Part shown: positions 40,566 through 57,236 of the stretch, piece by piece
Layout: each line of letters opens with the position of its first letter
Position numbering within the stretch: position 1 is the stretch's first letter
Source of the DNA: Burkholderiales bacterium
GTDB lineage: Bacteria; Pseudomonadota; Gammaproteobacteria; Burkholderiales; SG8-39
DNA length: 64,000 nucleotides
Reading direction: 5' to 3'
Assembly (NCBI GenBank): GCA_035310985.1
Contig: DATGDH010000072.1
Location: 41,568 to 105,567 of the forward strand
Notes under the pieces: generated by a model
The model's input: only the letters and a program-made list of their open reading frames with translations
What the model was told of the DNA's origin: nothing
Database searches by the model: none
Translations under genes and position numbers: made by a program

Positions 40566-41627
<1,062 letters not shown>

Positions 41628-41709
41628 ATCCTGTACCTCTTTTTGTGCAAGGTCGGCATCTACGGCGGTCGCGCCCCGACTGGAGCCGGTCCCGGGCCAA
41701 CACCGGATA

Positions 41710-41725
41710 CTGTATAAACGTCCAT
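41710..41725. promoter_or_regulatory. degenerate LexA (SOS) box candidate
   Basis: TACTGTATAAACGTCCATGC has a perfect left half (TACTGTAT) but the right half is CCAT instead of ACAG. It lies immediately downstream of the recA -10. Confidence 0.3.
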
Positions 41726-41727
41726 GC

Positions 41728-41755
41728 ATTGTACGGGTTGACGCAGGCGTGTCAA
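41728..41755 (-). promoter_or_regulatory. candidate recA sigma70 promoter
   Basis: Minus strand TTGACA (41755..41750), 16 nt, TACAAT (41733..41728), about 100 nt upstream of the recA ATG. Confidence 0.5.
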
Positions 41756-41802
41756 TCCGCCGCGCGTATGATCCGGTTTTTCCCAACGCAGACAAGGCCT
41801 TG

Positions 41803-42381
41803 ATGGAGATCCGGGAGCTGCACCTGTTCGTCCAGGAGATCGCGCATCACGCCGGCCGCGCAGTGTCTCCGCCCGCCGTGCGCGCCGTGAGCTGCGCCGT
41901 GCTCGCCAACCCGCTCGCCGGGAAGCCGGCGGGCGACGATTTCGCGCAGTTCGTCGAGGCCTCGGTGCAGGTGGGCGAGATCCTGACGCAGCGCGCGCTC
42001 GCCGCGCTCGGATCCCGCGTCCCGACTGCGTACGGCAAAGGCGTCCTCGTCGGCGCCGCTGGGGACCTCGAGCAGGGGGCAGCGATGATCCATTGCCGCA
42101 TCGGCCTCGCCATGCGCACCGCGATCAAGGCCGGCCGCGCGCTGATTCCTGGCAATGCGAAGCTCGCCGCGCCCGGCGCGACGCTCGACATCGTGCTCGG
42201 AGGCATCGACGACGGGTGGGACTACGATGCGATGGACACCGCCGAGATCCGCGTGCCGGGCGCGCCGGGCGCCGACGAGTTCGTGCTCGCCGTAGCGTTC
42301 GCCACGGGCAGGCCGAACGCACGCATCGCGGGCGCGCCCGAGAGCGCGGTGCAGGATCTCGTCAGGAAGCTCAGGGGTTAG
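41803..42381 (+). CDS. amino acid synthesis family protein (DUF1185-like, function unknown)
   Basis: MEIRELH...NPLAGK...[20 protein letters not shown]...[14 protein letters not shown] resembles that family. The track start 41527 lies inside recA and its promoter. Confidence 0.7.
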
Positions 42382-42424
42382 AATCGGTCCCTTCCCTGTT
42401 CGACCATTCCATGGAGAAAAAAAG

Positions 42425-43300
42425 ATGGCCAAGCTCGCATTTCTCGGCCTGGGCGTGATGGGCTACCCGATGGCCGGCCACCTGCTCAAGAAAGGCGGCC
42501 ACGACGTCACGGTGTACAACCGCACCCCAGCGAAGGCAGCGCAATGGGCAAAGGAATACGGCGGCAAGAGCGCGCCGACGCCGCGCGAGGCCGCCAAGGA
42601 CTGCGATCTGGTGATGATGTGCGTCGGCAATGACGACGACATTCGTTCGGTGGTGTACGGCGCGGACGGTGCGCTCGCCGGCATTAAGAAGGGCGCCATC
42701 CTGGTCGATCACACCACCGCATCGGCAATCATCGCGCGCGAGCTCGAGGCCAAGTGCAGGGAAAAGGGCGTTGGCTTCGTCGACGCCCCGGTCTCGGGCG
42801 GCCAGGCGGGCGCGCAGAACGGCCAGCTCGGCATCATGTGCGGCGGCGACGAGGCGACCTTCGCGAAGGCCAAGCCCGTGCTCGACCTGTACGCCAAGAT
42901 GTGCGCGCTGATCGGCCCCGCCGGCTCTGGCCAGCTCACCAAGATGGTCAACCAGATCGCCATCGCCGGACTGCTGCAGGGGCTCTCCGAAGCGCTCAAC
43001 TTCGCCAAGCGCGCCGGGCTGGACGTCGAGAAGGTGATCGGCGTCATCTCCAAGGGCGCGGCGCAATCCTGGCAGTTGGAGAACCGCTGGAAGGCGATGA
43101 CCGAGGTCAAGTTCGACGGGTTCGGTTTCGCCGTCGACTGGATGAGGAAGGACCTCGGCATCTGCCTCGAGGAAGCGAAGAAGAACGGCGCGCGGCTGCC
43201 GGCCACGGCGCTGATCGACCAGTTCTACGCGCAGGTGCAGGCGCGCGGCGGCAAGCGCTGGGACACTTCCTCGCTCATGAATCTGCTCGCGAAGGACTGA
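42425..43300 (+). CDS. NAD(P)-dependent 3-hydroxyisobutyrate/2-hydroxy-3-oxopropionate reductase-family oxidoreductase
   Basis: LAFLGLGVMGYPMAGHL, VDAPVSGG and GSGQLTKMVNQI motifs. Confidence 0.85.
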   Translation: MAKLAFLGLGVMGYPMAGHLLKKGGHDVTVYNRTPAKAAQWAKEYGGKSAPTPREAAKDCDLVMMCVGNDDDIRSVVYGADGALAGIKKGAILVDHTTASAIIARELEAKCREKGVGFVDAPVSGGQAGAQNGQLGIMCGGDEATFAKAKPVLDLYAKMCALIGPAGSGQLTKMVNQIAIAGLLQGLSEALNFAKRAGLDVEKVIGVISKGAAQSWQLENRWKAMTEVKFDGFGFAVDWMRKDLGICLEEAKKNGARLPATALIDQFYAQVQARGGKRWDTSSLMNLLAKD

Positions 43301-43304
43301 GCCG

Positions 43305-44537
43305 CTACTCCCCGCGCTGCAGCTTCCAGGTGGCCAGCGGGCCGAGCAGCGCGCCCAGTCCGAGCGTCGACCAGGCGATCCCCCACGCGAAGGCCTCGGC
43401 CGAGCCGCGCCCGCCGCCCGCCAGGTCTAGCGCCCAGCCGAACGTCACCGGGCTTACCACGCCGGCGCCGAAGCCGATCGCCGAGCGCACCGAGAAGGCG
43501 ACGCCGACTTGGTGCGGCGGCACGCTCTCGGCGAGCAGCGTCGAATGGGTCGAGGAATCGGCGATCGCCGAGAAGTTGTAGGCGCAGGCGAGCACCACCA
43601 GCAGCGCCGCGGGCACGTTGACCAGCCAGCCGATTGAGAAAGAGAGGACGAGGCTCACGCACGACCACAACAAGATGGTCTGCGTGCGCCCCCAGCGATC
43701 GGCCATGGTGCCGCCGAGCACGCTGCCGCCGATATTGGCGAGGTAGGTCACCGCGCCGAGCGCGAGCGCGGCGGTGGCGGCCGCCTGCGGCCCCTCTCCG
43801 CCTGCGGTGAGTGCCGCGGTGAGAAAGGCCGGCAGCCACGCCCACAGGCCGAGCAGCTCCCAGTTGTGGCAGGTGTAGCCGAGGATCGAGAGCATGCCGC
43901 GTCGGTTCGCGAGCACCGCCGGCAGCGCGGCGAGGGCGCCCTCGCCCGCGGGCCGGGGATGCACGACGTTCGGCGTTCCCCGCATCGACACGAGCGCGAG
44001 CAGCCAGGAGGCGAGCGGCAGCGCCGCGACTGCGCCGAGCGCGGCGCGCCAGCCGGCGAAGCCGAGCACCAGCCCCGACAGACCCAGGCACAGCGCGTAG
44101 CCCGCGCTCGAGGCGCCGATCACGAAGCCCATCGCACGCCCGCGCCGCGCGCGCTCGACGTGCTCGTTCACGAGGCCGAGCGCCGGCGTGTAGGTCCCGC
44201 CCTGCGCGAGCCCGGTCGCCAGGTGCAACCAGTACGCGGACCAGAAACCGTGCGCGAAAAGAACGAATACGATCGGCGCCACCCACGCCGCCGCTCCGGT
44301 CAGCAGGTAGGCGCGCCGGGCGCCGAAGTGGTCGGCGATGAAGCCGACGACGAACAGCGACACGAGGTAGCCGAGGTGGAACGCGGACTGGATCAGTCCC
44401 GCTTCCCGCGCCGATAGGCCCCAGGCCTGCTGGGTGAGCGGCAGCACCGCCGAATAAGCGACGAACCAGGTCGCAGCGAACATCCGGCTCGCGCAAATCG
44501 CCGCGAGCCATCCTCCCGATCCGGGCCGTAAGGCCAA
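43305..44537 (-). CDS. MFS transporter
   Basis: 12-TM pattern with an ADHFGARR loop motif. TTG 44537 preceded by AAGGAG. Confidence 0.85.
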   Translation of the reverse strand: MALRPGSGGWLAAICASRMFAATWFVAYSAVLPLTQQAWGLSAREAGLIQSAFHLGYLVSLFVVGFIADHFGARRAYLLTGAAAWVAPIVFVLFAHGFWSAYWLHLATGLAQGGTYTPALGLVNEHVERARRGRAMGFVIGASSAGYALCLGLSGLVLGFAGWRAALGAVAALPLASWLLALVSMRGTPNVVHPRPAGEGALAALPAVLANRRGMLSILGYTCHNWELLGLWAWLPAFLTAALTAGGEGPQAAATAALALGAVTYLANIGGSVLGGTMADRWGRTQTILLWSCVSLVLSFSIGWLVNVPAALLVVLACAYNFSAIADSSTHSTLLAESVPPHQVGVAFSVRSAIGFGAGVVSPVTFGWALDLAGGGRGSAEAFAWGIAWSTLGLGALLGPLATWKLQRGE

Positions 44538-44720
44538 TTCCCGTGCTCCTTTCTTCTTGCTATTCCGCGCGAGCGGACTGCGAAGCCTTGATGATAGCCA
44601 GGTTGCCTAGGGCTCTCGGGCGGCGCACAAGGGCCTGTTTCTCTGGAATGTGCATACGTCACTTTTTTTCTACGCCTTGCTTCGCTGAGTTACGGGCGTC
44701 CGATCTCTACATTGTCAATC

Positions 44721-44741
44721 GCCGGCGCGCGTCGCGCCGGC
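44721..44741. repeat. GC-rich inverted repeat GCCGGCGCG-CGT-CGCGCCGGC
   Basis: Perfect 9-bp arms with a 3-nt loop, 25 nt upstream of ATG 44766, at the edge of an AT-richer divergent intergenic region. Confidence 0.5.
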
Positions 44742-44765
44742 ACGACGAACCGATAGGAGCCGACC

Positions 44766-45104
44766 ATGAGCTTCACCTCAAAGTGTCTCGTCGTCGCGCC
44801 GGTGTGCGCGGCGCTCTCCATGGCAGCCGGATACGCCCGAGCGGAGGATCCGGCACTGGATCACAACGCTAGATCGCAGGTCGAGAGCCTCGTGACCGGG
44901 AGCATGGGAATCAAGGAAGCGAAAGGGGCCGTCGCGCACCTGACCGCCGCCAGGACGTCGACGCGGCCAGAAGACGGGTTGTCGGCGGATCGCGCGAAGG
45001 CGCCAGCCTCCACGCGGGCGCTGACGGACCCGGAATTGCCCGTGGCCCCGCTCGACAACTACCGGCTCGAGCTCAACAACTGCTGCGGACCCGAGGAAGA
45101 CTGA
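44766..45104 (+). CDS. small secreted hypothetical protein (C-terminal NNCCGPEED)
   Basis: GGAG lies 8 nt before the ATG. Signal peptide (VCAALSMAAGYARA/ED). No family recognised. Confidence 0.45.
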   Translation: MSFTSKCLVVAPVCAALSMAAGYARAEDPALDHNARSQVESLVTGSMGIKEAKGAVAHLTAARTSTRPEDGLSADRAKAPASTRALTDPELPVAPLDNYRLELNNCCGPEED

Positions 45105-45129
45105 TCTAGGTAGTTCCGCCTGAGCGGCG

Positions 45130-46218
45130 TCACGCCGCCATCGTCGCCAGCCGCACCGGGATGCGCCGCGGGCCGAAGGGCTTGCCGTATTTCTGGTAGC
45201 GGCCGGCGACCTGCGCGCCGCAATGCACGCAGCCGCCGGACTCGGTCAAGTGGTAGGCGCGGATGTCGTACCAGTCGCGCACGATGACCGCTTCGCCGCA
45301 CGACGGGCAGTAGGTCGTACCGCCCTCCTCGTCGTGCACGTTTCCCGTGTAGACGTAGCGCAGCCCTTCGCGCAGGGCGATATCGCGCGCGCGTCGGAGC
45401 GTCGCGGGCGGCGTCGCCGGCACGTCGCGCATCTTCCAGTCCGGATGGAAGGCGGTGAAGTGCAGCGGCACGTCAAGCCCGAGGTTCCGGGCGATCCACT
45501 TGCACTCGGCCTCGAGCTCGGCGTCGGAATCGTTCTTGCCCGGGATGAGCAGCGTCGTGATCTCGGTCCACACGTCGGTCTCCTTGGCGAGGTAGACGAG
45601 CGTGTCGAGTACTGGCTGCAGGTGCGCCCCGGTGAGCTTGAAGTAGAAGTCGTCGGTGAACGCCTTCAGGTCGACGTTCGCGGCGTCCATTTTGGCGTAG
45701 AACTCGCGCCGCGCTTCGGCGCGCATGTAGCCGGCGGTGACCGCGACGGTCTTCACGCCCTTCGCGTGGCAGGCGTCCGCGACATCCATTGCGTACTCGG
45801 CGAAGATTGCCGGATCGTTGTAGGTGAAGGCCACGCTCTTGCAGCCTAGGCGCAGCGCGGCGCCGGCGATCGTCTCGGGCGTCGCCTCGTCCATCAGCCG
45901 GTCCATCTCGCGCGATTTGGAGATGTCCCAGTTCTGGCAGAACTTGCACGCCAGGTTGCAGCCCGCGGTGCCGAAGGAGAGCACGCTCGAGCCGGGGTAG
46001 AACTGGTTGAGCGGCTTCTTCTCGATCGGGTCGACGCAGAAGCCCGACGAGCGCCCGTAGGTGGTGAGCACCATCTTGCTGTCCTGCATTTTCCTCACGA
46101 AGCACGCGCCGCGCTGGCCCTCGTGCAACTTGCAGTCGCGCGGGCACAGGTCGCACTGGATGCGGCCGTCCTCGAGCGCGTGCCACCAGCGCCCGGGATG
46201 CTTCGATTCCGAGATCAT
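45130..46218 (-). CDS. AmmeMemoRadiSam system radical SAM enzyme
   Basis: CNLACKFCQNW (CxxxCxxC), N-terminal CDLCPRDC cluster, C-terminal CPSCG...CVHCG, and a PFL-activase-like body. Immediately downstream of the Memo/AMMECR1 gene. Confidence 0.9.
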   Translation of the reverse strand: MISESKHPGRWWHALEDGRIQCDLCPRDCKLHEGQRGACFVRKMQDSKMVLTTYGRSSGFCVDPIEKKPLNQFYPGSSVLSFGTAGCNLACKFCQNWDISKSREMDRLMDEATPETIAGAALRLGCKSVAFTYNDPAIFAEYAMDVADACHAKGVKTVAVTAGYMRAEARREFYAKMDAANVDLKAFTDDFYFKLTGAHLQPVLDTLVYLAKETDVWTEITTLLIPGKNDSDAELEAECKWIARNLGLDVPLHFTAFHPDWKMRDVPATPPATLRRARDIALREGLRYVYTGNVHDEEGGTTYCPSCGEAVIVRDWYDIRAYHLTESGGCVHCGAQVAGRYQKYGKPFGPRRIPVRLATMAA

Positions 46219-46219
46219 G

Positions 46220-47590
46220 TCAGTGCGCCGCGAAGTCCGACTGGCGCCACTTCATCACCTGGTAGCGCCAGACATTGCACTGGACGAGCCGGGTGTCGGC
46301 GGGCAGGCCCGCCTTGTGCTTGAGCTCCTCGATGAAGCGGCGCCGGTCGGGCAGGCTCTCCCACACCTGGGGCAGGAAGGTGCCACGCCGCGCCCCTTGC
46401 TCGAGGATCACGCCGTCCACGCCCGGGCGCAGCTTGACCAGCAGGTCGACTTCGTCGGAGAAGGGCACGCGCTCGGGCGCCGTGAGCAGCGACACCTCGG
46501 CCTCGACGCACGGCCATTCGTGCGCCGCGAGCGGCGCGAAGCGCGGGTCGCGGAACGCGGCGTTCTCGGCGTTCGCGGCGACGTCGACCCCGAGCGGCCG
46601 ATGCGCCTGCAGGCTGCCGATGCAGCCGCGCAGCGCTCCGTCCATGGTAAGCGTGACGAAGGTGGCGCCGAGCTGCGCAAGCCAGGCGGGACGATCGAGG
46701 CGTGGCGGCTCGGCGGCCTGGCCGAGACGGTGCCCGATCGCGCCGCGCGCGATGCCGACCAGCGTGCGCCCCGCCTCTTCCCGCGACGCTTCTTCCCCCT
46801 CGTACAGCGCGAAAGCGGAGTAACCGACCACGCGCTGGCGGTCGCCGGCCGTGTCGCCCGAGTTGCACGCGGCGAGCGGCTTGATCGCCAGGCCCTTCGC
46901 GCCGGCCACCTGCAGCAGCCCGTTTAGCGGGGTCGCGCCGCAGGCCTCCTCGTGGCCGAGGTCGGTTGCGTACGAGGAGATTCGCGCGATGGTGGAGGCG
47001 TCGATGCGCTTGGCCTCGTCGTAGCGGTGGTAGTGAGACATGTCGGTGCTGACTACGACGAGCGTCTCGCCGCCGCCCCACAGGCGCTCGATCACTTCGG
47101 CCACCTCGGCGACGCTCGCCTGGCCGACCGCGAACGGCACCAGGGAGAACTGTCCGAGCGCGCGCTGCAGGAACGGCAGCTGGACCTCCAGCGAGTGCTC
47201 AAAGGCGTGCGCCGGCGTGCTGGTCACCACCTGCGGCATGCCGGAGAGCGCGGTGAGCGCCTCGCTGTCGATCGGAATGCGCCCCAGCGGTGTCTCGAAC
47301 TCGTCTGCGCCGGGCAGCGCCAGCCCGCGCACCGGGACCCGGTGCACCGGGCCGAGCAGCACGACCCGCTTCAGCGCGCCGCGCCCGGCGGCAAGCTCGG
47401 CGTAGGCGCGCGCCGCGACGGGGCCGGAATAGACATAGCCGGCGTGCGGCACGATCAGCGCCTTGGGGAAGCCGAAGCGCGGCGCGTCGCCTTCGGCCGC
47501 AGCCATCAGCTCGCCGACTTGGGCGGCGAGCACGCGCGCGTCACCAGGATAGAAGGCGCCTGCGACGGCGGCCGGGCGGACGATAGCCAT
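46220..47590 (-). CDS. fused AmmeMemoRadiSam system protein B (Memo-like) - protein A (AMMECR1 domain)
   Basis: N-terminal half has AGAFYPG, VPHAGYVYSG, HSLEVQLPFL and STDMSH (Memo). C-terminal half has FVTL...LRGCIGSL...GTFLPQVW (AMMECR1). ATG 47590 is preferred over TTG 47650, which would overlap cinA. Confidence 0.9.
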   Translation of the reverse strand: MAIVRPAAVAGAFYPGDARVLAAQVGELMAAAEGDAPRFGFPKALIVPHAGYVYSGPVAARAYAELAAGRGALKRVVLLGPVHRVPVRGLALPGADEFETPLGRIPIDSEALTALSGMPQVVTSTPAHAFEHSLEVQLPFLQRALGQFSLVPFAVGQASVAEVAEVIERLWGGGETLVVVSTDMSHYHRYDEAKRIDASTIARISSYATDLGHEEACGATPLNGLLQVAGAKGLAIKPLAACNSGDTAGDRQRVVGYSAFALYEGEEASREEAGRTLVGIARGAIGHRLGQAAEPPRLDRPAWLAQLGATFVTLTMDGALRGCIGSLQAHRPLGVDVAANAENAAFRDPRFAPLAAHEWPCVEAEVSLLTAPERVPFSDEVDLLVKLRPGVDGVILEQGARRGTFLPQVWESLPDRRRFIEELKHKAGLPADTRLVQCNVWRYQVMKWRQSDFAAH

Positions 47591-47624
47591 ATGGCGATGA
47601 ATATGGGGCCGGATGGCGGAACTT

Positions 47625-48131
47625 CTAGACCCGCGGAGCGGCCCCGTCAAGCCACTCGACGGCGCCCTGCAGCGCGCGCATCACCGACTGCCGCCGGACC
47701 TGCTCCCGATCGCCGCTGAAATGCCGCGTTTCACTGCGCACGGCACCGTCCTTCGATGCCCAGGCGAAGCAAACCATCCCCACCGGCTTGCCGGGCGTCC
47801 CGCCGCTCGGGCCCGCGACCCCCGTGATGGCGAGCGCGAGAGTGCCGCGGCTCGCCGCGAGCGCCCCGAGCGCCATCTCGCGCGCTGTCTCCTCGCTCAC
47901 CGCACCGTGGCGCTCGAGCGTCTCGCGGCGCACGCCGAGAAGCTCCTCCTTGGACGCGTTGGAATAGCTCACGAAGCCGCGCTCGAACCACTCCGAGCTG
48001 CCGGCGACCGCGGTGACAGACTGCGCGACCCAGCCCCCCGTGCACGACTCCGCGGTGACCAGCAGCTCGCGTGCCGCCTTGAGCCGGCCGCCAACGAGCA
48101 CCGCCAGGGTCATGAGTGCGTCGCTCGCCAT
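47625..48131 (-). CDS. CinA-family protein (C-terminal nicotinamide-nucleotide amidohydrolase-type domain)
   Basis: TAESCTGGW, GFVSYSN and ITGVAGPSGG motifs. Confidence 0.85.
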   Translation of the reverse strand: MASDALMTLAVLVGGRLKAARELLVTAESCTGGWVAQSVTAVAGSSEWFERGFVSYSNASKEELLGVRRETLERHGAVSEETAREMALGALAASRGTLALAITGVAGPSGGTPGKPVGMVCFAWASKDGAVRSETRHFSGDREQVRRQSVMRALQGAVEWLDGAAPRV

Positions 48132-48132
48132 G

Positions 48133-48624
48133 TCAGCCGAACACCCTCATGGCCACCGCGAGGACGAGCAGCGTATAGCCCGCGGCGAGGATGTCGTCGA
48201 ACATGACGCCGAAGCCGCGTTTGTATCGGCGCTCGAACTGGCGGATCGGCGGTGGCTTGAGGATGTCGAACATCCGGAAAAGCACGAACGCAGCGCCCTG
48301 CCACACAGCCTGTGCTGGCACCACCAGCAGCACCGCGAGGAACGCCACCAGCTCGTCCCACACCATCGCGCCGTGATCAGCCACGCCGAGGTGCCGCCCG
48401 GTGATCCCGCAAGCCCACACGCCGGCCCCAAACAACAGTACGACGATCGCGCCCAGCATGGCGGGCGGATAGCGGCCCGCGAGCAACCACCAGGCGGGAA
48501 ACGCGAGCAGAGTGCCGAAGGTCCCGGGCGCGACGCGCGCGAGGCCGACGCCGAAGCCGAACGCGATGAAGTGCGCGGGATGCGAGACGACGAAGCCCAG
48601 GCGCGGCCGCAGCACCGTCTTCAT
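48133..48624 (-). CDS. pgpA: phosphatidylglycerophosphatase A
   Basis: FGFGVGLARVAPGTFGTL, WDELV, DILKPPPI and DDILAAGY motifs. Confidence 0.9.
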   Translation of the reverse strand: MKTVLRPRLGFVVSHPAHFIAFGFGVGLARVAPGTFGTLLAFPAWWLLAGRYPPAMLGAIVVLLFGAGVWACGITGRHLGVADHGAMVWDELVAFLAVLLVVPAQAVWQGAAFVLFRMFDILKPPPIRQFERRYKRGFGVMFDDILAAGYTLLVLAVAMRVFG

Positions 48625-49577
48625 GACGCGAAGTGGTCGTAACCGCCGCCGCAGGGCATCGCCGCGCCGCGCGTGTCGAGCAGTACGAGCTTGTCGCCCG
48701 GCTGGATCGCCCCGACGCGCGTGATTGCGATGCCCAGACCCCCGCCAAGCGCCTGGATCTCGGTGCGGCTCGACTGCGCCGCGGTGAACAGCAGCTCGTA
48801 ATCGTCGCCGCCGGAGAGCACGCAGTCCCGCTCGAGCTGTTCGTCGCCCAAGCCCGCGAACTCGGGCGCCTTCGGCAGCCGCGCGTAGTGCGCCAGCGCG
48901 CCGACTCCCGAGCGCTCGAGCACGTGGCGCAGGTCGCCGGCGAAGCCGTCCGAGATATCGATCGCGCTGGTTGCGATGCCGCGCAGGCGCTCGCCGAGCT
49001 CGACGCGCGGCTCGGGTTCATCTAGCCGCCTGCCGACCGATGCGGCCTGCGCCGCGCCCAGCGTTGCTCGCCCGGCGCGTGCCGCGAGCGCGAGCGCCGC
49101 GCCGCCGAGAGCGCCCGACACCCAGATGTCGTCGCCCGGCCGTGCGCCGGCCCGGAATAGCGCCAGCCCGTCCGGCACCTCGCCCAGGATGGTGATCGCA
49201 ATCGTGAGCGGCCCGCGCGTCGTGTCGCCGCCAATCAGGTCGACGGAGAAACGGTCGGCCAGCGCGAATAGCCCTCGCGTGAAGCCTGCGAGCCAGTTCT
49301 CGTCGGCCGCGGGCAGCGCGATCGCGAGCAGCGCCCAGCGCGGCGTAGCGCCCATCGCCGCCATGTCCGACAGGTTCACCGCGAGCGCCTTGTGACCGAG
49401 CGCGCGCGGGTCGGCGCCCGCGGCGAAATGCCGGCCTTCGATCAGCATGTCCGTCGAGACCGCGAGCTCCATGCCCGGGCCGGGACGTACCAGCGCAGCG
49501 TCGTCCCCCACGCCGAGCAGCGCGCCGCGGGCCGGGCGGTCGAAATAGCGCGCGATGAGCTCGAACTCGGATGGCAT
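48621..49577 (-). CDS. thiL: thiamine-monophosphate kinase
   Basis: SEFELI, GDDAAL, STDMLIEGRHF, GGDTTRG, and DISDG in its C-terminal domain. Confidence 0.9.
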   Translation of the reverse strand: MPSEFELIARYFDRPARGALLGVGDDAALVRPGPGMELAVSTDMLIEGRHFAAGADPRALGHKALAVNLSDMAAMGATPRWALLAIALPAADENWLAGFTRGLFALADRFSVDLIGGDTTRGPLTIAITILGEVPDGLALFRAGARPGDDIWVSGALGGAALALAARAGRATLGAAQAASVGRRLDEPEPRVELGERLRGIATSAIDISDGFAGDLRHVLERSGVGALAHYARLPKAPEFAGLGDEQLERDCVLSGGDDYELLFTAAQSSRTEIQALGGGLGIAITRVGAIQPGDKLVLLDTRGAAMPCGGGYDHFAS

Positions 49578-49615
49578 GACCGTGCCAGTGTAGCGCCGGC
49601 CGCGTGCGGTCGCGC

Positions 49616-50056
49616 TCAGGCCGTTTGCTTGGCGCGGGCGACTTCCTCTGGCCGCAGGCGCTCGGCGAGCTTCTCCAGCACGCCGTTTACGAAGCGATGG
49701 CCTTCCGTGCCGCCAAAACTCTTGCCGAGCTCGATCGCCTCGTTCAGGACCACCTTGAACGGCGTCTCGGGCAGTGCCGACAGTTCGTAGGCGCCAATGT
49801 ACAGGATCGCCCGCTCGACCGGGGAGAGTTGAGCGAAGCTCCGCCCGGCGATGAACGGCGCGAGCATCGCTTCGAGCTCGGCGGCGCGGCTCACGACGCC
49901 GCCCACCAGCTCCTGCGCGAACGCGCGATCGCTGCGCTCGAAGCCCTCGAGGTCCTTGGCTTGCTCGATCACCTCGGCCGACGCGCCCCCTGCCAGCTGC
50001 CAGGCGTACAGCGCCTGCAGGGCGATCTCTCGCGCGCGACGCCTCGAGCTCTTCAT
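49616..50056 (-). CDS. nusB: transcription antitermination factor NusB
   Basis: [25 protein letters not shown] and [11 protein letters not shown]...FVNGVL motifs. ATGA overlap with ribH. Confidence 0.9.
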
Positions 50057-50505
50057 CGCCAGCGCTCCGCGAGTTCCGTGCGCAGCCGCGCCATCTCGAT
50101 CGCGACGCGCACCGCTTCTGCGCCCTTTTCTGCGCGCGCGAGCGCCTGTGTCTCGTCCTGGGTAGTGAGGATGCCGTTCGCCACCGGTACGCCGAACTCG
50201 AGCGCCACGTCCATCACGCCGCGCGATGACTCGTTCGCGACGACTTCGAAATGATAGGTCTCGCCGCGGATCACCGCGCCGATCGCGACCAGCGCATCGT
50301 AGCGCTCCGACTGCGCCAGCCACTGCAGCGCAAGGGGAATCTCGAGCGCCCCGGCAACGGTCACGCGCGTCACGTCTTCGGCGTGCACTCCGAGCCGCGC
50401 GAGCTCCGCGTCGGCGCGCTCGAGCAGCTTCGCCACGATCTCCTCGTTGAAGCGGCTGGCCACGATACCGATGCGCAGCCCCGCGCCGTCTAGCGCCGCG
50501 GCCAT
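50053..50505 (-). CDS. ribH: 6,7-dimethyl-8-ribityllumazine synthase
   Basis: [29 protein letters not shown] and VANGILT motifs. Confidence 0.95.
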
Positions 50506-50508
50506 CGC

Positions 50509-51642
50509 TCAGCCCCCGCGCCGGGGCAGCTCGGCGTAGCCGGTAACCTCGAGCCCGAAGCCCGTCATGCTCGGCATCTTGCGCGGCGCGGCCATGAGCC
50601 GCATCTTGCCGACGCCGAGATCGCGCAGGATCTGCGCGCCGATGCCGTAGGTACGCAAGTCCGTGCTGCGCGAATCGCGCCGCACAGGCCGCGCCTCGGC
50701 GCCCGGCATACGCAGGCTCGCCTCGAGCGCTTCGTCGTCCTGCGCGCAGTTGAGCAGAACGATGACGCCTGCGCTCGCCCGCGCGAGCGCCGACAGCGCC
50801 TCGGAAATGGTCCAGCTGTGGGTGCCGGGTCCCGCATCGAGCAAGTCGACGAGCGACAGCGGCTCGTGCACGCGCACCAGCGTTTCGCGCTCGGCGCGAA
50901 CTTCGCCGCGCACCAGGGCGAGATGCGTGCCGCCGGTGGGCAGATCGCGGTAGGCGACCATGCGGAAGCCGCCGTGGGCGGTCACGATGTCGCGCTCGAC
51001 ACTGCGTCGCACGAGCGACTCGGTTGCGCTGCGGTACTCGATCAGGTCGGCGATCGTGCCGATCTTCAGCCCGTGCGCGGAGGCGAAAACGACCAGCTGC
51101 GGCAGGCGCGCCATGCTTCCGTCGTCATGCATGACCTCGCAGATCACGGCCGCCGGCGTGAGGCCAGCGAGCTGCGCGAGATCGCAGCCCGCCTCGGTGT
51201 GCCCGGCGCGCACCAGCACGCCACCGGGCTGCGCAACGACCGGGAAGATGTGCCCCGGCTGCACGATGTCCGCCGGCTTGGCGTCTCTCGCGACCGCCGC
51301 GCGGACGGTGCGCGCGCGGTCGTGCGCCGAGATGCCGGTGCTCACCCCTTCGGCGGCCTCGATCGATACGGTGAAGTTGGTGCCCATCGGCGAGCGGTTG
51401 TCGCGCACCATCGGCGGCAGGTTGAGCTGCCGGCGGCGCTCTTCCGTCAGCGTCAGGCACACCAGGCCACGCGCGTGCTTGGCCATGAAGTTGATCGCCT
51501 CGGGCGTGACATGCTCGGCGGCGATGACGAGATCGCCCTCGTTTTCCCGGTCCTCCTCATCGACCAGGATGACCATGCGCCCGGACCTGATGTCCGCGAC
51601 GATCTCGGCCGTCGGGCTGATGGCGGTGGTTTCGCGACGCAT
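50509..51642 (-). CDS. ribB: 3,4-dihydroxy-2-butanone-4-phosphate synthase with degenerate GTP-cyclohydrolase-II-like C-terminal domain (RibBX-type)
   Basis: The N-terminal half has DEEDRENEGDL, TVSIEA, PGHIFP and GHTEAG (DHBP synthase). The C-terminal half aligns to RibA but reads VRVHEPLSLVDLLDAG where the zinc Cys residues (SECLTGD...CDCG) should be. Confidence 0.85.
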   Translation of the reverse strand: MRRETTAISPTAEIVADIRSGRMVILVDEEDRENEGDLVIAAEHVTPEAINFMAKHARGLVCLTLTEERRRQLNLPPMVRDNRSPMGTNFTVSIEAAEGVSTGISAHDRARTVRAAVARDAKPADIVQPGHIFPVVAQPGGVLVRAGHTEAGCDLAQLAGLTPAAVICEVMHDDGSMARLPQLVVFASAHGLKIGTIADLIEYRSATESLVRRSVERDIVTAHGGFRMVAYRDLPTGGTHLALVRGEVRAERETLVRVHEPLSLVDLLDAGPGTHSWTISEALSALARASAGVIVLLNCAQDDEALEASLRMPGAEARPVRRDSRSTDLRTYGIGAQILRDLGVGKMRLMAAPRKMPSMTGFGLEVTGYAELPRRGG

Positions 51643-51648
51643 GCCTGG

Positions 51649-51654
51649 ATTATA
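51649..51654 (-). promoter_or_regulatory. TATAAT hexamer (minus strand) 6 nt upstream of the ribB(X) ATG (possible leaderless start)
   Basis: Minus strand reads CCCTATAAT-CCAGGC-ATG, located between the rplS terminator and the ribB ATG. No SD and no good -35. Confidence 0.3.
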
Positions 51655-51669
51655 GGGCGGGCGACAGAC

Positions 51670-51692
51670 AAAAAAGGGGCGCCGGACGCCCC
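51670..51692 (-). terminator. intrinsic terminator after rplS
   Basis: Minus strand GGGGCG-UCCGG-CGCCCC followed by UUUUUU, 25 nt downstream of the rplS stop. Confidence 0.65.
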
Positions 51693-51717
51693 TCTCTCGC
51701 ACTGGCTTCGCCGCCGC

Positions 51718-52095
51718 TCACTCCCCCTGCGCGCTCTCCGCGGCGCCGGTCCTTTCGCGGATGCGCGCCGACTTTCCCGAGCGCGCGCGCAGGTAATACA
51801 GCTTCGCGCGCCGCACCTCGCCCTTCCGCTTCACCTCGACCGACGCGATCAGCGGCGAGTAGGTCTGGAAGGTGCGCTCGACGCCCTCTCCCGAGGAAAT
51901 CTTGCGCACGATGAACGAGGAGTTCAGGCCGCGATTCCGCTTGGCGATCACCACCCCCTCGAAGGCCTGCACGCGCTTGCGCTCGCCCTCGACCACGTTC
52001 ACGTTGACCACCACCGTGTCGCCGGGCGAGAAATCGGGGATGTTCTTGCCAAGCCGCTTGATTTCTTCCTGCTCGATTTGCTGGATCAGGTTCAT
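51718..52095 (-). CDS. rplS: 50S ribosomal protein L19
   Basis: [11 protein letters not shown]...FSPGDTVVV...EGERKR.Q.FEGVVIA..NRGL.S.F.VRKIS.GEGVER.F is classic L19. Confidence 0.97.
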
Positions 52096-52850
52096 GATCT
52101 CGCTCCGTTAGTCGTTTCGCGCTGGAATTCTTCCAGCAGTCCGCGTTCCTCGTCACTCATCTTGCGCGCCGCGAGCAGCTCCGGTCTTCTAAGCCAGGTC
52201 CGCCCCAGCGCCTGCTTCAATCTCCAGCGCCGGATCTTCTCGTGGTTGCCCGTGAGAAGCACCTCCGGCACCGTCTCGCCCGCGTACGTCTCCGGGCGCG
52301 TGTACTGCGGGCAGTCGAGCAGCCCCTGTACGAAGGACTCCTCGAGCGCCGAACACTGGTCGCCGAGCGCGCCGGGCAGCTGCCGTACCACGGCGTCGAT
52401 CAGCGCCATCGCCGCCAGCTCTCCGCCCGACAGCACGAAGTCTCCGAGCGACAGCTCCTCGTCGACGCACCGCGCCAGCAGCCGCTCGTCGACACCTTCG
52501 TAGCGGCCGCACAACAGCGTCAGCGCCCGCTCCCGCGACAGCGCGACCACTCTCCGGTGATCGAGCCGTCGGCCCTGCGGCGAAAGGAAGATCACCCTGC
52601 CCTTCGCCTCTCCCTGCGACGCAGCCACCGCGTCGAGGGTCTTTTCCAGCGGCTCGGCCAGCATCACCATGCCCGGCCCGCCCCCGTACGGCCGATCGTC
52701 GACCGTACGGTAATTGTCCGTCGTGAAATCGCGCGGATTCCACGTCTGCAGGCGCCACAGCCCTGCTTCCTGCGCACGCCGCGTGATGCCGTAATGCGTC
52801 ACTGCAGCGAACATCTCGGGGAACAAAGTTATCGCGTCGAAGCGAATCAC
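52092..52850 (-). CDS. trmD: tRNA (guanine37-N1)-methyltransferase
   Basis: [40 protein letters not shown] and [10 protein letters not shown] motifs. GTG 52850 (GTGA coupling with the rimM stop) best matches the family N-terminus; an alternative ATG is at 52865. Confidence 0.9.
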
Positions 52851-53350
52851 CACTCTGCGCCCCATTCGACCTCGATGCGCCTTCCCTCGAGGTCGACCTT
52901 CTTCACTACCGCAGGCAGGAACGGCACCAGTCGCGTGCTCCTGTCCCCGGTCAGCTCCATCACGTCGTGAGCCCCGTTGGAGAACAGCCCCTGCACCACG
53001 CCCAGCACCGACCCCTGGGCATTCACCACTTCCAGGCCGACCAGGTCGGCCCAGTAATATTGCCCCGCCTCGGGCTCGGGCAGCGCCGCGCGCGGAACCG
53101 ATACCGCCTTGCCCTTGAGCCGCAGGGCCTGCTCGCGTGTCCCGATGCCCGCGAGCCGGGCGAGCAGCGCGCCCGAGTGCACCTTGGTTTCTTCTACGCC
53201 GTAGTCTTCGGCACCAATGCGCCATTTCCGATGCGCCGCCAGCGCTTCGGGCTCGGCGCTATAGGGCCTGACCCGTATCAAGCCGCGCACGCCGTAGCTG
53301 CCGGCGACGCGGCCCATGTCTATCCAGCGCTCAGGCTGCCTTCTTGCCAA
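52847..53350 (-). CDS. rimM: ribosome maturation factor RimM
   Basis: [26 protein letters not shown] and a PRC-barrel C-terminus. The start is TTG 53350 (overlapping rpsP by 20 nt) or ATG 53317. Confidence 0.85.
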
Positions 53351-53582
53351 ACTGCTTGACCAGCCGCGTCACCGTCGGCGACAGCTTGGCGCCCTTGCCC
53401 TGCCAATGCTTGACCCGCTCGACGTTCACGCGCAGTGCCTCGCGCCCTTCCGGCGCCTTCGGATCGTAGAAGCCGACGCGCTCGATGAAGCGGCCGTCGC
53501 GCGCCCGCCGCGAGTCGGCCACCACCATGTGGTAGAAAGGCCGCTTGTTGGCGCCGCCACGCGCCAGTCGAATCACCACCAT
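53331..53582 (-). CDS. rpsP: 30S ribosomal protein S16
   Basis: [40 protein letters not shown] is classic S16. Confidence 0.97.
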
Positions 53583-53615
53583 AGGGAGTTCCCGTGAGTC
53601 CGCGAAAAGGCGCGG

Positions 53616-53644
53616 ATTATACGGGAATAATCAGTGTCTTGGGA
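53616..53644 (-). promoter_or_regulatory. candidate promoter of the rpsP-rimM-trmD-rplS operon
   Basis: Minus strand TTCCCA, 18 nt, TATAAT (53621..53616), followed by a small CCGCG-CCUUUU-CGCGG hairpin in the 5' UTR. Confidence 0.4.
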
Positions 53645-53648
53645 AGCC

Positions 53649-54998
53649 TCAGCGCATGCCCGGCAGCACGCCCTTCATGCCGCGCATCATGCGCGCGAGG
53701 TTGCCGCCCTTCATCATCTTCATCATCTTCTGCATCTGCTCGAACTGGTTGAGCACACGGTTCACCTCCTGGACCGGCACGCCGGCCCCTGCGGCGATGC
53801 GCCGCTTGCGCGAGGCCTTGATCAGCTCCGGCCGGGCGCGCTCCTGCGGCGTCATCGAATTGATGATCCCTTCGATGCGCCGCATCTGCTTGCCGTCCTG
53901 AAGCTGCGCCGCGTTCACGGATCCCGCGATCTGCGCCGGCAGCTTGTCCATCACCGCCGCCAGCCCGCCCATCTTGTTCATCTGCTGGATCTGCGCCTTG
54001 AAATCCTCGAGATCGAAGCCCTTGCCCTTCTTGAGCTTCTCGGCGACGCGCTGCGCCTGCTCGAGATCGACGCCCTTGCGCGCCTCCTCGACCAGCGAAA
54101 CGATGTCGCCCATGCCGAGGATGCGCGAAGCCATGCGCTCGGGATGGAAGGGCTCCAGCGCGGCGAGCTTCTCGCCCACGCCAACGAACTTGATCGGCTT
54201 GCCGGTGACCTGGCGCACCGACAGCGCCGCGCCGCCGCGCGCGTCGCCATCGAGCTTGGTCAGGATCACGCCGGTAAGCGGGAGCCGCTCGCTGAACGCC
54301 CTCGCGACGTTTACCGCATCCTGGCCCTGCATCGCATCGACCACGAACAGCGTTTCCGCCGGCGAGAGCAGCGCGTGCAGCTCGGCGATCTCGCGCATCA
54401 TCGCTTCATCGATCGCCAGCCGCCCCGCGGTATCCACGAGCAGCACGTCGTAGTAGCGCGTCCGCGCATGCTCAAGCGCGCGCCGCGCGATATCGGCGGG
54501 ATTTTCGCCCGCGGACGTCGGCAGGAAATCGACCCCGGCCTGCGCCGCAACGGTCTTCAGCTGCTCGATCGCGGCCGGTCGGTACACGTCGCAGGAGACC
54601 ACGAGCGTCTTCTTGCGCTCCTCCTTCAGCACACGCGCCAGCTTGCCGGTGGTGGTGGTTTTCCCCGAGCCCTGCAGCCCGGCCATCAGGATCACGGCCG
54701 GGGGCTGGACCGCGAGCTCGAGCCCGACATTGGCCTCGCCCATCAGGCGCGTTAGCTCGTGGTGCACGACGCCGATCAGCGCCTGTCCGGGGGTCAGGCT
54801 GCCGATCACGTCTTCGCCGAGCGCCCTTTCGCGCACTGCAGCGATGAAATCCCTGACTACCGGCAGCGCGCAGTCGGCTTCGAGCAGCGCAATGCGCACC
54901 TCGCGCAAGGCTTCCTGGATATTCGCTTCCGTGAGGCGCGCTTCGCCGCGTATCGTCTTGACGATGCGGGCGAGCCGCGAGGTGAGGTTGTCTAGCAT
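53649..54998 (-). CDS. ffh: signal recognition particle protein Ffh
   Basis: MLDNLTSRL, GLQGSGKTTTTGKLA, DTAGRL, TKLDGDARGGAALS and a Met-rich M domain (MQKMMKMMKGG). Confidence 0.97.
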   Translation of the reverse strand: MLDNLTSRLARIVKTIRGEARLTEANIQEALREVRIALLEADCALPVVRDFIAAVRERALGEDVIGSLTPGQALIGVVHHELTRLMGEANVGLELAVQPPAVILMAGLQGSGKTTTTGKLARVLKEERKKTLVVSCDVYRPAAIEQLKTVAAQAGVDFLPTSAGENPADIARRALEHARTRYYDVLLVDTAGRLAIDEAMMREIAELHALLSPAETLFVVDAMQGQDAVNVARAFSERLPLTGVILTKLDGDARGGAALSVRQVTGKPIKFVGVGEKLAALEPFHPERMASRILGMGDIVSLVEEARKGVDLEQAQRVAEKLKKGKGFDLEDFKAQIQQMNKMGGLAAVMDKLPAQIAGSVNAAQLQDGKQMRRIEGIINSMTPQERARPELIKASRKRRIAAGAGVPVQEVNRVLNQFEQMQKMMKMMKGGNLARMMRGMKGVLPGMR

Positions 54999-55052
54999 GA
55001 ATGATGACGCACGCCGCGTCGGCAGTCGCGACGGCGGTGATAAACTGAATCG

Positions 55053-55928
55053 ATGCCTCACATTCTACTGCACGCGATAACCAGCGCCATCTACGCCGGC
55101 CTCGCGGTGCATTTCTGGCGTACGCGCTGGTCCTCGCGGGCGCACGAGGCGCACGCCGCGCCGGGCGGGCTGCGCCCCTGGGAGCGCACGGCGCTTCTGG
55201 CTCCGCTAGCGCTGCACGGTTGGCTCCTTTACGCGGATATTGTGCTGCCGAGCCAATCGCGCTTCGGCTTCGCCCATGCGCTGTCCGCCATGCTCTGGTT
55301 GACGGTGATGTTCTACTGGCTGGAGAGCTTCTTCTACAACATAGAGGGCATGCAGGCACCCGCGCTGGCGCTCGCCGCGCTGTGCGCGCCGCTGCCGGCC
55401 TTGTTCCCCGGATCGGAGTACGCGGCGTCGTTCGAATTCAAGCTCCACGTTGTGCTCGCCATGTTGGCCTACAGCCTGTCCACCATCGCCATCCTGCACG
55501 CGCTGCTCATGGCACTGGTAGAACGTCGCCTGCATCAATCGACCAAGCTGCGCGGCGCCGGCGGCGCATTCCTCGCCGATGGCGCGACCATGCTGCGCGG
55601 GCCGCTCGCCTCGCTGCCCCCGCTGCTGACCCTCGAGCGCCTGTTGTTTCGTCTCATCGGCGCAGCGTTCGCGCTGCTCACGCTCACGCTTGCAACCGGG
55701 ATCTTGTTCTCCGAGACGCTGTTCGGCCGGCCGCTCAGGTTCGATCACAAGACTGTGTTCTCGGTGGTCTCCTGGCTGACTTTCGCGGCGCTACTCGTCG
55801 GCCGGCATTTCTACGGCTGGCGCGGCCGTACGGCGCTGCGCTGGACGCTCGCCGGCTTCGTATTCTTGCTGCTCGCGTACGTCGGGAGCCGTTTCGTGCT
55901 GGAGGTCATACTGCACCGCCCCGGTTAG
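55053..55928 (+). CDS. ypjD: cytochrome c assembly-family inner-membrane protein (YpjD-like)
   Basis: Polytopic membrane protein divergent from ffh, as in E. coli ffh<>ypjD, with a CcsA-like hydrophobic pattern. Confidence 0.8.
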   Translation: MPHILLHAITSAIYAGLAVHFWRTRWSSRAHEAHAAPGGLRPWERTALLAPLALHGWLLYADIVLPSQSRFGFAHALSAMLWLTVMFYWLESFFYNIEGMQAPALALAALCAPLPALFPGSEYAASFEFKLHVVLAMLAYSLSTIAILHALLMALVERRLHQSTKLRGAGGAFLADGATMLRGPLASLPPLLTLERLLFRLIGAAFALLTLTLATGILFSETLFGRPLRFDHKTVFSVVSWLTFAALLVGRHFYGWRGRTALRWTLAGFVFLLLAYVGSRFVLEVILHRPG

Positions 55929-55937
55929 CCGCCCGCG

Positions 55938-57236
55938 ATGGAAAACATCCCGCTATCGAGCGAAGTCATCGCCCTGGCTGTGCTGCTGGTGATCTCCGGG
56001 TTTTTCTCGATCTCCGAGACCAGCATGATCGCCCTCAATCGCTATCGGCTGCGCCATCTGGTCGCGCAAGGCCACGGGGGAGCGAAACGTGTGGCAAGCC
56101 TCCTCAAGCGCACCGACCGCATGCTCGGGGCAATTCTCATCGGCAACAATATCGCGAACGCCGCCGCGGCCACGCTCGCGGGCATCGTCGCGGTGCGCCT
56201 TTTCGGCGACAACAAGACCGCCTACGCCGTGAGCACGCTCGCGATCTCGTTCCTGATCATCGTGCTGTCGGAGATCACGCCGAAGGTGATCGGCGCCGCG
56301 TATCCCGAGCGGATCGCCCTGCCTCTCGCATATGTCCTCGGGCCGATCCAGAAGCTCATGCAGCCTGCGATCTGGTTCGTGAACCTCTTCGTTAGGCCCT
56401 TCCTGTGGCTCGCGCGCGTGCCTTCCGAGGGCACTGAGGACGCTCCGAAGCTCACGTCCGGGGAAATCCGTACCCTGGTGCTCGAATCGTCGCACTTCAT
56501 GCCCAAGAAGCACGTGTCGATCCTGCTCAACCTGTTCGACCTCGGCAATATAAGGGTGCAGGACATCATGGTGCCGCGGGCGAAGATCGAGTCCGTATCC
56601 CTGAGCGACGACATGGAGACCATCGCGCGTCAGCTCGCGACCAGCTACCACATGCGACTGCCCGTGTTTCGCGACAGCCTGGGCGAAGTGGCGGGCGTGC
56701 TGCACCTGCGCAAGGTGCTCGGCTTGTTGCACGCCGGAGCGCTCGACAAGCAAGAGCTGGAACAGCTGATCGTCGATCCCTACTTCGTCCCGGCCTCAAC
56801 CCCGGTGCTCGCGCAACTGCAGTACTTCCAGGAAAACCGCGAACGCATCGCGCTGGTGGTCGACGAGTACGGGGAGCTGATGGGCCTGGTGACGCTGGAG
56901 GACATCATCGAGGAGATCATCGGCAAGTTCACCACCACCGTTCCTTCCGCCGCGCCAGCGCTGCGCTGGGAAGAAGACGGCACCGCGACCGCCGACGGCG
57001 CGCTGCCGGTGCGCGAGGTGAACCGGGCGCTTGGCCTCGCGCTACCGACCGACGGCCCCAAAACGCTCAATGGTCTGATCCTTGAGCACCTGCAGGAGAT
57101 CCCGGAGGCGGATGTGGCGATCAGGATCGCCGGCGTGCCGATGGAAATCGTGCACGCGCAAGGACGCAGTGTGAACACCGTGCGCATCCTTCGTCCGTCA
57201 CAGGCAGTCGGCACGGGCGAAAGTGAGGTTTTGTGA
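55938..57236 (+). CDS. HlyC/CorC family transporter (DUF21-CBS pair-CorC_HlyC)
   Basis: FFSISETSMIALN, ILIGNN, EITPK, a CBS pair (VQDIMVPR...), then VVDEYGELMGLVTLEDIIEEIIG and the C-terminal transporter-associated domain. Confidence 0.9.
   Translation: MENIPLSSEVIALAVLLVISGFFSISETSMIALNRYRLRHLVAQGHGGAKRVASLLKRTDRMLGAILIGNNIANAAAATLAGIVAVRLFGDNKTAYAVSTLAISFLIIVLSEITPKVIGAAYPERIALPLAYVLGPIQKLMQPAIWFVNLFVRPFLWLARVPSEGTEDAPKLTSGEIRTLVLESSHFMPKKHVSILLNLFDLGNIRVQDIMVPRAKIESVSLSDDMETIARQLATSYHMRLPVFRDSLGEVAGVLHLRKVLGLLHAGALDKQELEQLIVDPYFVPASTPVLAQLQYFQENRERIALVVDEYGELMGLVTLEDIIEEIIGKFTTTVPSAAPALRWEEDGTATADGALPVREVNRALGLALPTDGPKTLNGLILEHLQEIPEADVAIRIAGVPMEIVHAQGRSVNTVRILRPSQAVGTGESEVL

Follow-up and report, generated by a model that had tools for sequence, protein, structure and literature searches.

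A canonical AmmeMemoRadiSam module between cinA and recA in a Burkholderiales bacterium

RESULTS

Two genes of an AmmeMemoRadiSam module

We analyzed a stretch of 64 000 nucleotides from a Burkholderiales bacterium (GenBank assembly GCA_035310985.1, contig DATGDH010000072.1, positions 41 568 to 105 567 of the forward strand), hereafter called the window, and examined two adjacent genes on its minus strand, which encode a fused Memo-AMMECR1 protein and a radical S-adenosylmethionine (SAM) enzyme. A preliminary description of this DNA had assigned the pair to the AmmeMemoRadiSam system, had placed it at the end of a ribBX-ribH-nusB-thiL-pgpA-cinA string and had offered this linkage as a possible clue to function. 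We found that the two genes form a canonical, cytoplasmic, single-copy AmmeMemoRadiSam module, which is an ordinary member of a known system that is still unsolved.

Both open reading frames (ORFs) appeared in the ORF list with exactly the boundaries first reported for them (Table 1). Their junction reads GCG CAC TGA C ATG ATC, so that the gap between the two genes was indeed a single nucleotide, and this spacer contains no Shine-Dalgarno motif. An arrangement of the form TGA-C-ATG would suit translational coupling of the fusion gene and the radical SAM gene. On its 5' side, the frame of the fusion gene stays open up to an in-frame TTG at position 47650, from which an alternative product of 476 aa would start. 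The N-terminus of the fusion protein matched the start of its family profile and the N-termini of both proteins were unlike signal peptides, which indicates the ordinary cytoplasmic form. One copy of the system was present in this genome. For the upstream string, coordinates and family matches agreed with the gene order and the junctions of –4 to +38 nt given in the preliminary description.

Table 1. Features at the locus, in positions of the window
Feature	Position	Strand	Details
MFS (major facilitator superfamily) transporter gene	43305..44537	–	PF07690; travels with the pair in the clade
Convergent 112-aa ORF (orf112)	44766..45104	+	ORF list; not part of the system
AmmeMemoRadiSam radical SAM enzyme gene	45130..46218	–	362 aa; ORF list and TIGR04337
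Fused AmmeMemoRadiSam protein B-A gene	46220..47590	–	456 aa from ATG; Memo, short variable linker, AMMECR1
AMMECR1 domain	46247..46765	–	residues 276-448; TIGR04335
Memo domain	46808..47578	–	residues 5-261; TIGR04336
Candidate promoter TTGACG-N17-TAGAAG	47622..47650	–	TTGACG 47650-47645, TAGAAG 47627-47622
cinA/pncC	47625..48131	–	168 aa, CinA C-terminal (PncC) domain only; TIGR00199 160 bits, PF02464 187 bits
pgpA, thiL, nusB, ribH, ribBX	48133..51642	–	family matches; ribBX 50509-51642
Hairpin-T6 terminator after rplS, then TATAAT	51649..51692	–	read from sequence

Family assignment and predicted catalytic residues

The three NCBIfam models of the system scored far above their cut-offs and Pfam agreed, which bore out the family assignment. 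The radical SAM enzyme matched TIGR04337 with 642.9 bits (cut-off 220) over profile positions 2–349 of 349, and its Pfam match was Radical_SAM. The Memo half of the fusion protein reached 254 bits against TIGR04336 (cut-off 26) and 158.7 bits against PF01875, and the AMMECR1 half 175.7 bits against TIGR04335 (cut-off 99) and 144.6 bits against PF01871. The Memo, AMMECR1 and radical SAM motifs quoted earlier for this locus were all found, and their key residues were invariant among relatives.

The CX3CX2C motif of the radical SAM enzyme reads C87-N-L-A-C91-K-F-C94. The enzyme carries further cysteines at its N-terminus (C22, C25, C29 and C39) and in a C-terminal pair of CxxC motifs (C304, C307, C330 and C333), and all 11 cluster cysteines were invariant in alignments of 12 and of 50 relatives, the 50 being 68–93% identical to the window's enzyme. 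Among 26 fused homologues, which were 52–67% identical to the fusion protein, the invariant residues were H49, H83, H132, D183, H186 and C217 in the Memo half, and R321, G322, C323, G325, D348, R350 and F351 in the AMMECR1 half. The latter fall within the motifs R321-G-C323-I-G325 (RGCIG, residues 321–325) and D348-P-R350-F351 (DPRF, residues 348–351); RGChG and DxRa are the AMMECR1 signatures set out by Balaji and Aravind in 2007 (PMC2034487).

H49 and H83 of the fusion protein aligned with H49 and H81 of MEMO1, and D183 and H186 with D189 and H192. In crystal structures of MEMO1, iron or copper is bound by H49, H81 and C244 (PMC11081632). The profile alignment with MEMO1 ended at about residue 193, short of C244. 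C217 is invariant in the fused homologues and lies within a CG..P motif; we infer that it is the equivalent of C244, which would make it a putative third metal ligand. The residues predicted to be catalytic were thus intact in both proteins, namely the two MEMO1-aligned histidines, the cysteine of the AMMECR1 RGCIG motif, and the CX3CX2C motif with the two extra sets of four cysteines.

We modeled both proteins with AlphaFold (AF2). The top 120 homologues collected were close relatives only, and consequently the alignments used for folding were shallow in diversity (68–96% identity for the radical SAM enzyme). The model of the fusion protein had a predicted local distance difference test (pLDDT) score of 92.4 and a predicted template modeling (pTM) score of 0.88; such a pTM score for a two-domain protein suggests that the Memo and AMMECR1 domains are held in a fixed arrangement around the short variable linker. 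Its Foldseek matches were MEMO1 (7l5c and 7kq8; template modeling (TM) score on the target 0.79) and the archaeal AMMECR1 structures 1wsc and 1vaj (0.65–0.75). The fusion protein shares with human MEMO1 (7kq8 Fe-bound, 7l5c Cu-bound) its fold and the two aligned histidines, and with AMMECR1 (structures 1wsc, 1vaj and 1zq7) its fold and the RGChG and DxRa signatures. Unlike the genes in the window, however, eukaryotic MEMO1 and AMMECR1 are separate proteins without a dedicated radical SAM partner, and we know of no catalytic activity for MEMO1, AMMECR1 or any member of their families.

The model of the radical SAM enzyme had a pLDDT score of 84 and a pTM score of 0.87. A sequence search of the PDB returned pyruvate formate-lyase (PFL)-activating enzyme (PFL-AE) as the best match (E = 1e-7) and no solved structure for any member of the TIGR04337-type family. 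The nearest solved folds in Foldseek were likewise those of PFL-AE (3c8f, and 3cb8 with peptide substrate; E of about 1e-12, TM score on the target 0.71–0.74), followed by lipoyl synthase and by SuiB and viperin-like enzymes. The glycyl-radical activases represented by PFL-AE are accordingly the closest characterized relatives in sequence and fold, with a partial TIM barrel and the CX3CX2C motif in common. The window's enzyme differs from PFL-AE in its added N- and C-terminal four-cysteine sets, in having Memo-AMMECR1 as its partner, and in scoring below every glycyl-radical activase equivalog cut-off (58.3 versus 231.75 bits for TIGR02493, 55.7 versus 174.35 bits for TIGR02494, and lower for the others). 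Among the neighbouring genes (Memo-AMMECR1, the 112-aa ORF and the MFS transporter), which were the part of the genome covered by this search, no glycyl-radical enzyme was found.

The radical SAM enzyme was 69–96% identical to that of the window across the order and 54–71% identical in loci from other families of the phylum. In the latter, the partners were less conserved where found (Memo 38–58%, AMMECR1 33–54% identity). That the radical SAM enzyme is far more conserved than its partners is compatible with a universal, invariant substrate. Two disrupted copies of its gene were also seen: one in locus L061 (10001–11083), where the gene has an internal stop at codon 238 and a 3.1-kb insert separates cinA from Memo, and one in the genus-mate G010 (C1:343440–344484), where the gene is divided over two frames. 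Either decay or assembly errors may account for them.

The cinA linkage is confined to one clade

The comparison drew on 20 loci of genomes related to that of the window, 80 named betaproteobacterial loci and 32 loci of the phylum's other families. Each locus was searched with the window's proteins by tblastn, which could miss divergent copies of Memo or AMMECR1. The betaproteobacterial counts given below refer to the 94 loci with both a Memo and a radical SAM gene. The order was Memo, AMMECR1, radical SAM in every betaproteobacterial locus that covered all three genes; Memo and AMMECR1 were fused in 41 of the 94 loci and separate in 53. Open frames of about 820 aa at the radical SAM gene in genomes G017, G019 and G026 were considered as candidate triple fusions and were rejected as an artefact of high guanine-cytosine content, because AMMECR1 and the radical SAM enzyme lie in different frames there; none of the 94 loci had all three fused.

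The cinA gene was located upstream in 25 of the 94 loci, and in all 25 Memo and AMMECR1 were fused. In a maximum-likelihood tree of 133 radical SAM sequences, the 26 cinA-linked rows (these 25 and the window) fell within one 28-row clade with a Shimodaira-Hasegawa-like approximate likelihood ratio test (SH-aLRT) support of 88. The window belonged to a 17-row subclade with a support of 99, and the nearest outgroups had the module in an ispD context. Two rows of the clade lacked the cinA linkage, one being a locus without upstream flank and the other a genuine loss. At least 3 label changes were required on the tree, one of them at the locus without upstream flank. Because all cinA-linked rows were found in one clade, a single relocation suffices to explain the linkage.

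An empty site, ribBA-ribH-nusB-thiL-pgpA-cinA-recA with a cinA-recA gap of 48–189 nt, was observed in genomes G018, G024 and G053, of which G018 and G024 are members of the family without the system, and G053 belongs to another family and keeps the system beside ispD. Contiguous pgpA, cinA and recA genes were noted for relatives' loci L165, L168 and L169. In the window (positions 40566–48131), recA lies 3.5 kb past the radical SAM gene, and cinA is parted from recA by a 6-kb block consisting of Memo-AMMECR1, the radical SAM gene, orf112, the MFS gene and a 3-hydroxyisobutyrate-dehydrogenase-like gene. Since relatives read pgpA-cinA-recA, the pair occupies an old cinA|recA junction. The upstream string and the downstream recA-recX of the window follow the order, widespread in proteobacteria, of the ribE(ribH)-nusB-thiL-pgpA cluster and of pncC-recA-recX-alaS known from genomes of the Escherichia coli type, from which the window differs in the block between cinA and recA; the E. 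coli order pncC-recA is the same as that of the empty-site relatives.

We further considered the possibility that the linkage is functional, in other words, that the module acts in a pathway of its neighbours and that co-expression with them is selected; the pathway could concern a nucleotide-derived cofactor, through the nicotinamide mononucleotide deamidase PncC/CinA, ThiL or riboflavin synthesis, or a lipid linked to PgpA. The unbroken minus-strand string with junctions of at most 38 nt and without a terminator fits this proposal, as do the adjacency kept in most of the 17-row subclade, with junctions of 2–5 nt in L045, L054 and L055, and the finding that the neighbours in every context are housekeeping metabolic genes (cinA, ispD/ispF, phosphoribosyltransferase). 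However, unrelated genes have been inserted at the cinA|Memo junction in nine relatives within the clade. In three loci of a sister subclade (L043, L046 and L083), the insert is a same-strand gene for a secreted SAM-dependent methyltransferase of about 300 aa with a signal-peptide-like N-terminus, and inserts of similar size but without a clear frame occur in L039 and L077. The remaining inserts encode a histidine phosphatase and the MFS transporter (L048), a coenzyme A (CoA)-transferase and an enoyl-CoA hydratase (L061), or membrane proteins on the opposite strand (L044 and L085).

Outside this clade, the linkage was absent from most betaproteobacterial loci and, without exception, from the 32 loci of other families, none of which had cinA, pgpA, thiL, ribH or ribBA within 8 kb; in these loci, Memo-AMMECR1 was often encoded divergently from the radical SAM gene or was not detected within 8 kb of it by tblastn. 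In genomes that lack the system at this site, moreover, the ribBA-to-cinA string is whole and recA comes next, and cinA was also found in genomes without the system altogether. Together with the single origin that suffices on the tree, these observations make a functional linkage very improbable. The conservation of the cinA/pgpA linkage, for which a synteny check had been proposed, therefore held inside a family-level clade but not beyond it, and the proposal that cinA, pgpA, thiL and the rib genes are a clue to function was not upheld. We consider it probable, instead, that the module, with its predicted residues intact, owes its position to one relocation into the cinA|recA junction within a family-level clade of uncultured Burkholderiales, with no conserved functional association.

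Transcription of the pair

Between rplS and ribBX, a hairpin (GGGGCG/CGCCCC) carries a T6 tail; the TATAAT beyond it stands 6 nt ahead of the ribBX ATG, with no Shine-Dalgarno motif. This terminator and the TATAAT element are likely to mark the upstream boundary of the transcription unit. The ribBX transcript itself may be leaderless. As the preliminary description had stated, no terminator precedes position 45130: a terminator scan of the minus strand from 51640 to 45130 gave only a weak match within pgpA. No intrinsic terminator was found 3' of the radical SAM stop codon, where RNA folding equalled that of shuffled sequence (z = 0.30), and no Rfam family, whether riboswitch or other RNA, reached its gathering score in positions 43000–56000. 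The spacer between cinA and Memo is 34 nt long and has no hairpin; the pair is therefore probably read through from the upstream string in this genome.

The 3' end of cinA could nevertheless supply the pair with a promoter of its own. The last cinA codons, ...TGG CTT GAC GGG..., give TTGACG, and the TAG of the putative –10 element TAGAAG is the cinA stop codon (Table 1). The heptamer CTTGACG was invariant in the window and in 11 of 11 relatives in which Memo follows cinA at 20–37 nt, even though the flanking codons and amino acids vary and CTT is a rare leucine codon (4.3% of the leucine codons in these genes). It was missing at the junctions of 2–5 nt (L045, L054 and L055), at a junction of 86 nt (L047), at junctions bearing inserts, and at loci with cinA before recA. 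In this nucleotide-level conservation, CTTGACG resembles a –35 element. We also considered whether TTGACG is an inherited recA promoter and rejected this origin, since the motif is missing at that position in relatives whose cinA immediately precedes recA.

If these elements are active, the pair would be an autonomous transcription unit and its adjacency to the string merely physical. This reading, to which we give somewhat less than an even chance, draws on the retention of CTTGACG, with its rare CTT codon, 17 nt ahead of TAGAAG, TAGAAC, TAGATA or TACATA, the –10 candidates of the relatives, exactly where Memo follows at 20–37 nt. In addition, a divergent intergenic region immediately precedes Memo in the 19 loci with an ispD context, where the module must be self-sufficient. 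On the other hand, the –10 element is weak and a consensus promoter scan did not report the TTGACG-N17-TAGAAG site; cinA and Memo are not separated by a terminator; the loci with 2–5-nt junctions do without the motif; and the loci are related, so that shared ancestry accounts for part of the conservation.

Other contexts and neighbouring genes

Of the other genomes sampled from the window's family, 29 of 36 had the radical SAM gene, and in a phylum-wide sample of 401 genomes, the window's own among them, it was present in 152. In a control set, Thermus thermophilus exceeded the TIGR04337 cut-off, whereas E. coli K-12 gave no match to this model. A divergent ispD-ispF context, with a gene of the LigT/ThpR-like 2',5' RNA ligase family and mfd nearby, was found in 19 betaproteobacterial loci (L032, L051, L058–L060, L063, L067, L068, L071, L075, L086, L093, L095, L097, L101, L115, L120, L121 and L131), whose hosts include Sulfuriferula, Accumulibacter, Zoogloea and Dechloromonas. 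On the tree, ispD-ispF looks like the older context. In 17 loci the radical SAM gene was followed by an alpha/beta hydrolase gene, and a phosphoribosyltransferase gene occurred in some contexts.

Within the family, 22 of 22 genomes with an orthologue of the MFS transporter had the radical SAM gene as well, and 7 genomes had the radical SAM gene without such an orthologue. In several relatives, the MFS gene follows the radical SAM gene at 0–35 nt on the same strand (MFS genes were noted in L036, L037, L047, L052–L054 and L056); in L048, and in L104, whose context is otherwise unrelated, its place is upstream of Memo. The MFS gene may represent a fourth gene peculiar to this clade or may simply be hitch-hiking. 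The convergent orf112 stops 25 nt short of the radical SAM stop codon; the N-terminus of its product is signal-peptide-like, and the C-terminus has a CC motif. The product had no family match in NCBIfam or Pfam, and among the loci examined its homologues were restricted to the genus-mates L034 (79% identity) and L033 (39% identity).

DISCUSSION

Neither the AmmeMemoRadiSam system nor the Memo-AMMECR1 fusion is new. A 2007 paper showed that AMMECR1 persistently neighbours a radical SAM enzyme and a ring-opening-dioxygenase-like (Memo) protein, and it already described fusions of AMMECR1 with a Memo-type protein (PMC2034487). Its authors predicted an uncharacterised RNA base modification through the conserved cysteine, a prediction restated in 2014 (PMC2034487, PMC4075521). 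Close homologues of the radical SAM enzyme are named 'AmmeMemoRadiSam system radical SAM enzyme' by NCBI and PFL-activating enzyme by JGI. Burroughs et al., whose 2019 paper (JBC) is cited in PMC7159879 and PMC8431788 and is the main comparative study of Memo contexts, are said to have extended these contexts. Their study reportedly connects Memo with nucleotide-base and isoprenoid modification. The statement in the preliminary description that substrate and product are still to be found agrees with our full-text literature search, which returned no experimental characterization of the AmmeMemoRadiSam system. The module in the window resembles the system as defined by TIGR04335, TIGR04336 and TIGR04337 in that all models exceed their cut-offs, the components are adjacent, the signature residues are present and the proteins are cytoplasmic. 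In comparison with other AmmeMemoRadiSam systems nothing essential differs, the local traits being the fusion and the cinA|recA position.

The Memo, AMMECR1 and radical SAM domains would act as one complex. In a first step, the PFL-activase-like radical SAM enzyme would cleave SAM and take a hydrogen from a substrate held in the cysteine cleft of AMMECR1; in a second, the Fe/Cu site of Memo would carry out a follow-up redox step. As to the substrate, we tentatively favor RNA or a nucleotide base, the published prediction, because AMMECR1 has the RAGNYA fold, which binds nucleic acids, and because of its neighbours in archaea (PMC2034487, PMC4075521). The likeness of the fold to those of PFL-AE and lipoyl synthase favors, more generally, a macromolecule-bound substrate. 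A residue of the Memo-AMMECR1 protein itself, or of another protein, is a weaker candidate, a small molecule or an isoprenoid lipid appears slightly less likely again, and the small remainder falls to something else.

A stricter version of the protein-substrate proposal is that the radical SAM enzyme is an activase, which would place a radical or a covalent modification on Memo-AMMECR1, for example on the invariant AMMECR1 cysteine, so that the modified protein is the working enzyme. PFL-AE and lipoyl synthase act on protein-bound substrates, and the nearest relatives in sequence and fold are indeed the glycyl-radical activases (PFL-AE, peptide-bound in 3cb8) and lipoyl synthase. The strict co-occurrence, the translational coupling and the fusion in 41 of 94 loci would be in keeping with a tight protein-protein relationship, and Cys323, which is invariant, lies exposed in the cleft of AMMECR1 (PMC2034487). 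However, the enzyme scored far under all glycyl-radical activase equivalog cut-offs (58 bits versus 231 for TIGR02493), eukaryotes keep Memo and AMMECR1 without a radical SAM partner, and in many loci from other families tblastn with the window's proteins, which divergent copies could escape, detected neither Memo nor AMMECR1 within 8 kb of the gene for the radical SAM enzyme. We therefore regard a strict activase as rather unlikely. It is also conceivable, if improbable, that the system synthesizes or repairs a diffusible small metabolite, such as a modified nucleotide, a cofactor or an isoprenoid-linked compound, and does not modify RNA; this idea is suggested by its siting near pncC/cinA-pgpA-thiL, near ispD-ispF, and near phosphoribosyltransferase and alpha/beta hydrolase genes, and by the co-travel of the MFS transporter.

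Several points weigh against our interpretation of an ordinary module brought to this site by one relocation and acting by such a mechanism. The clade that unites the cinA-linked loci has an SH-aLRT support of 88 in a quick tree and is not a starred branch. The junctions of 2–5 nt in L045, L054 and L055 force co-transcription with cinA, and some selection for co-expression may have acted in the clade of these three loci. The operon structure and the internal promoter are both read from the nucleotide sequence, and the –10 candidates do not have the usual T at position 6. The likeness to PFL-AE is modest (TM score on the query 0.50, 18% identity), and the mechanism is inferential.

The human homologues of Memo and AMMECR1 have been connected with the motility of cancer cells and with an X-linked developmental syndrome. 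Since no member of these families is known to have a catalytic function, genuine evidence on the substrate would be of value; the present locus provides none. The negative result on linkage keeps cinA, thiL and pgpA from being read as pathway partners of the system. Modest leads are left in the kinship of the radical SAM fold with enzymes that act on protein-bound substrates, in the co-travel of the MFS transporter in this clade, and in the recurrent adjacency to ispD-ispF in another clade.

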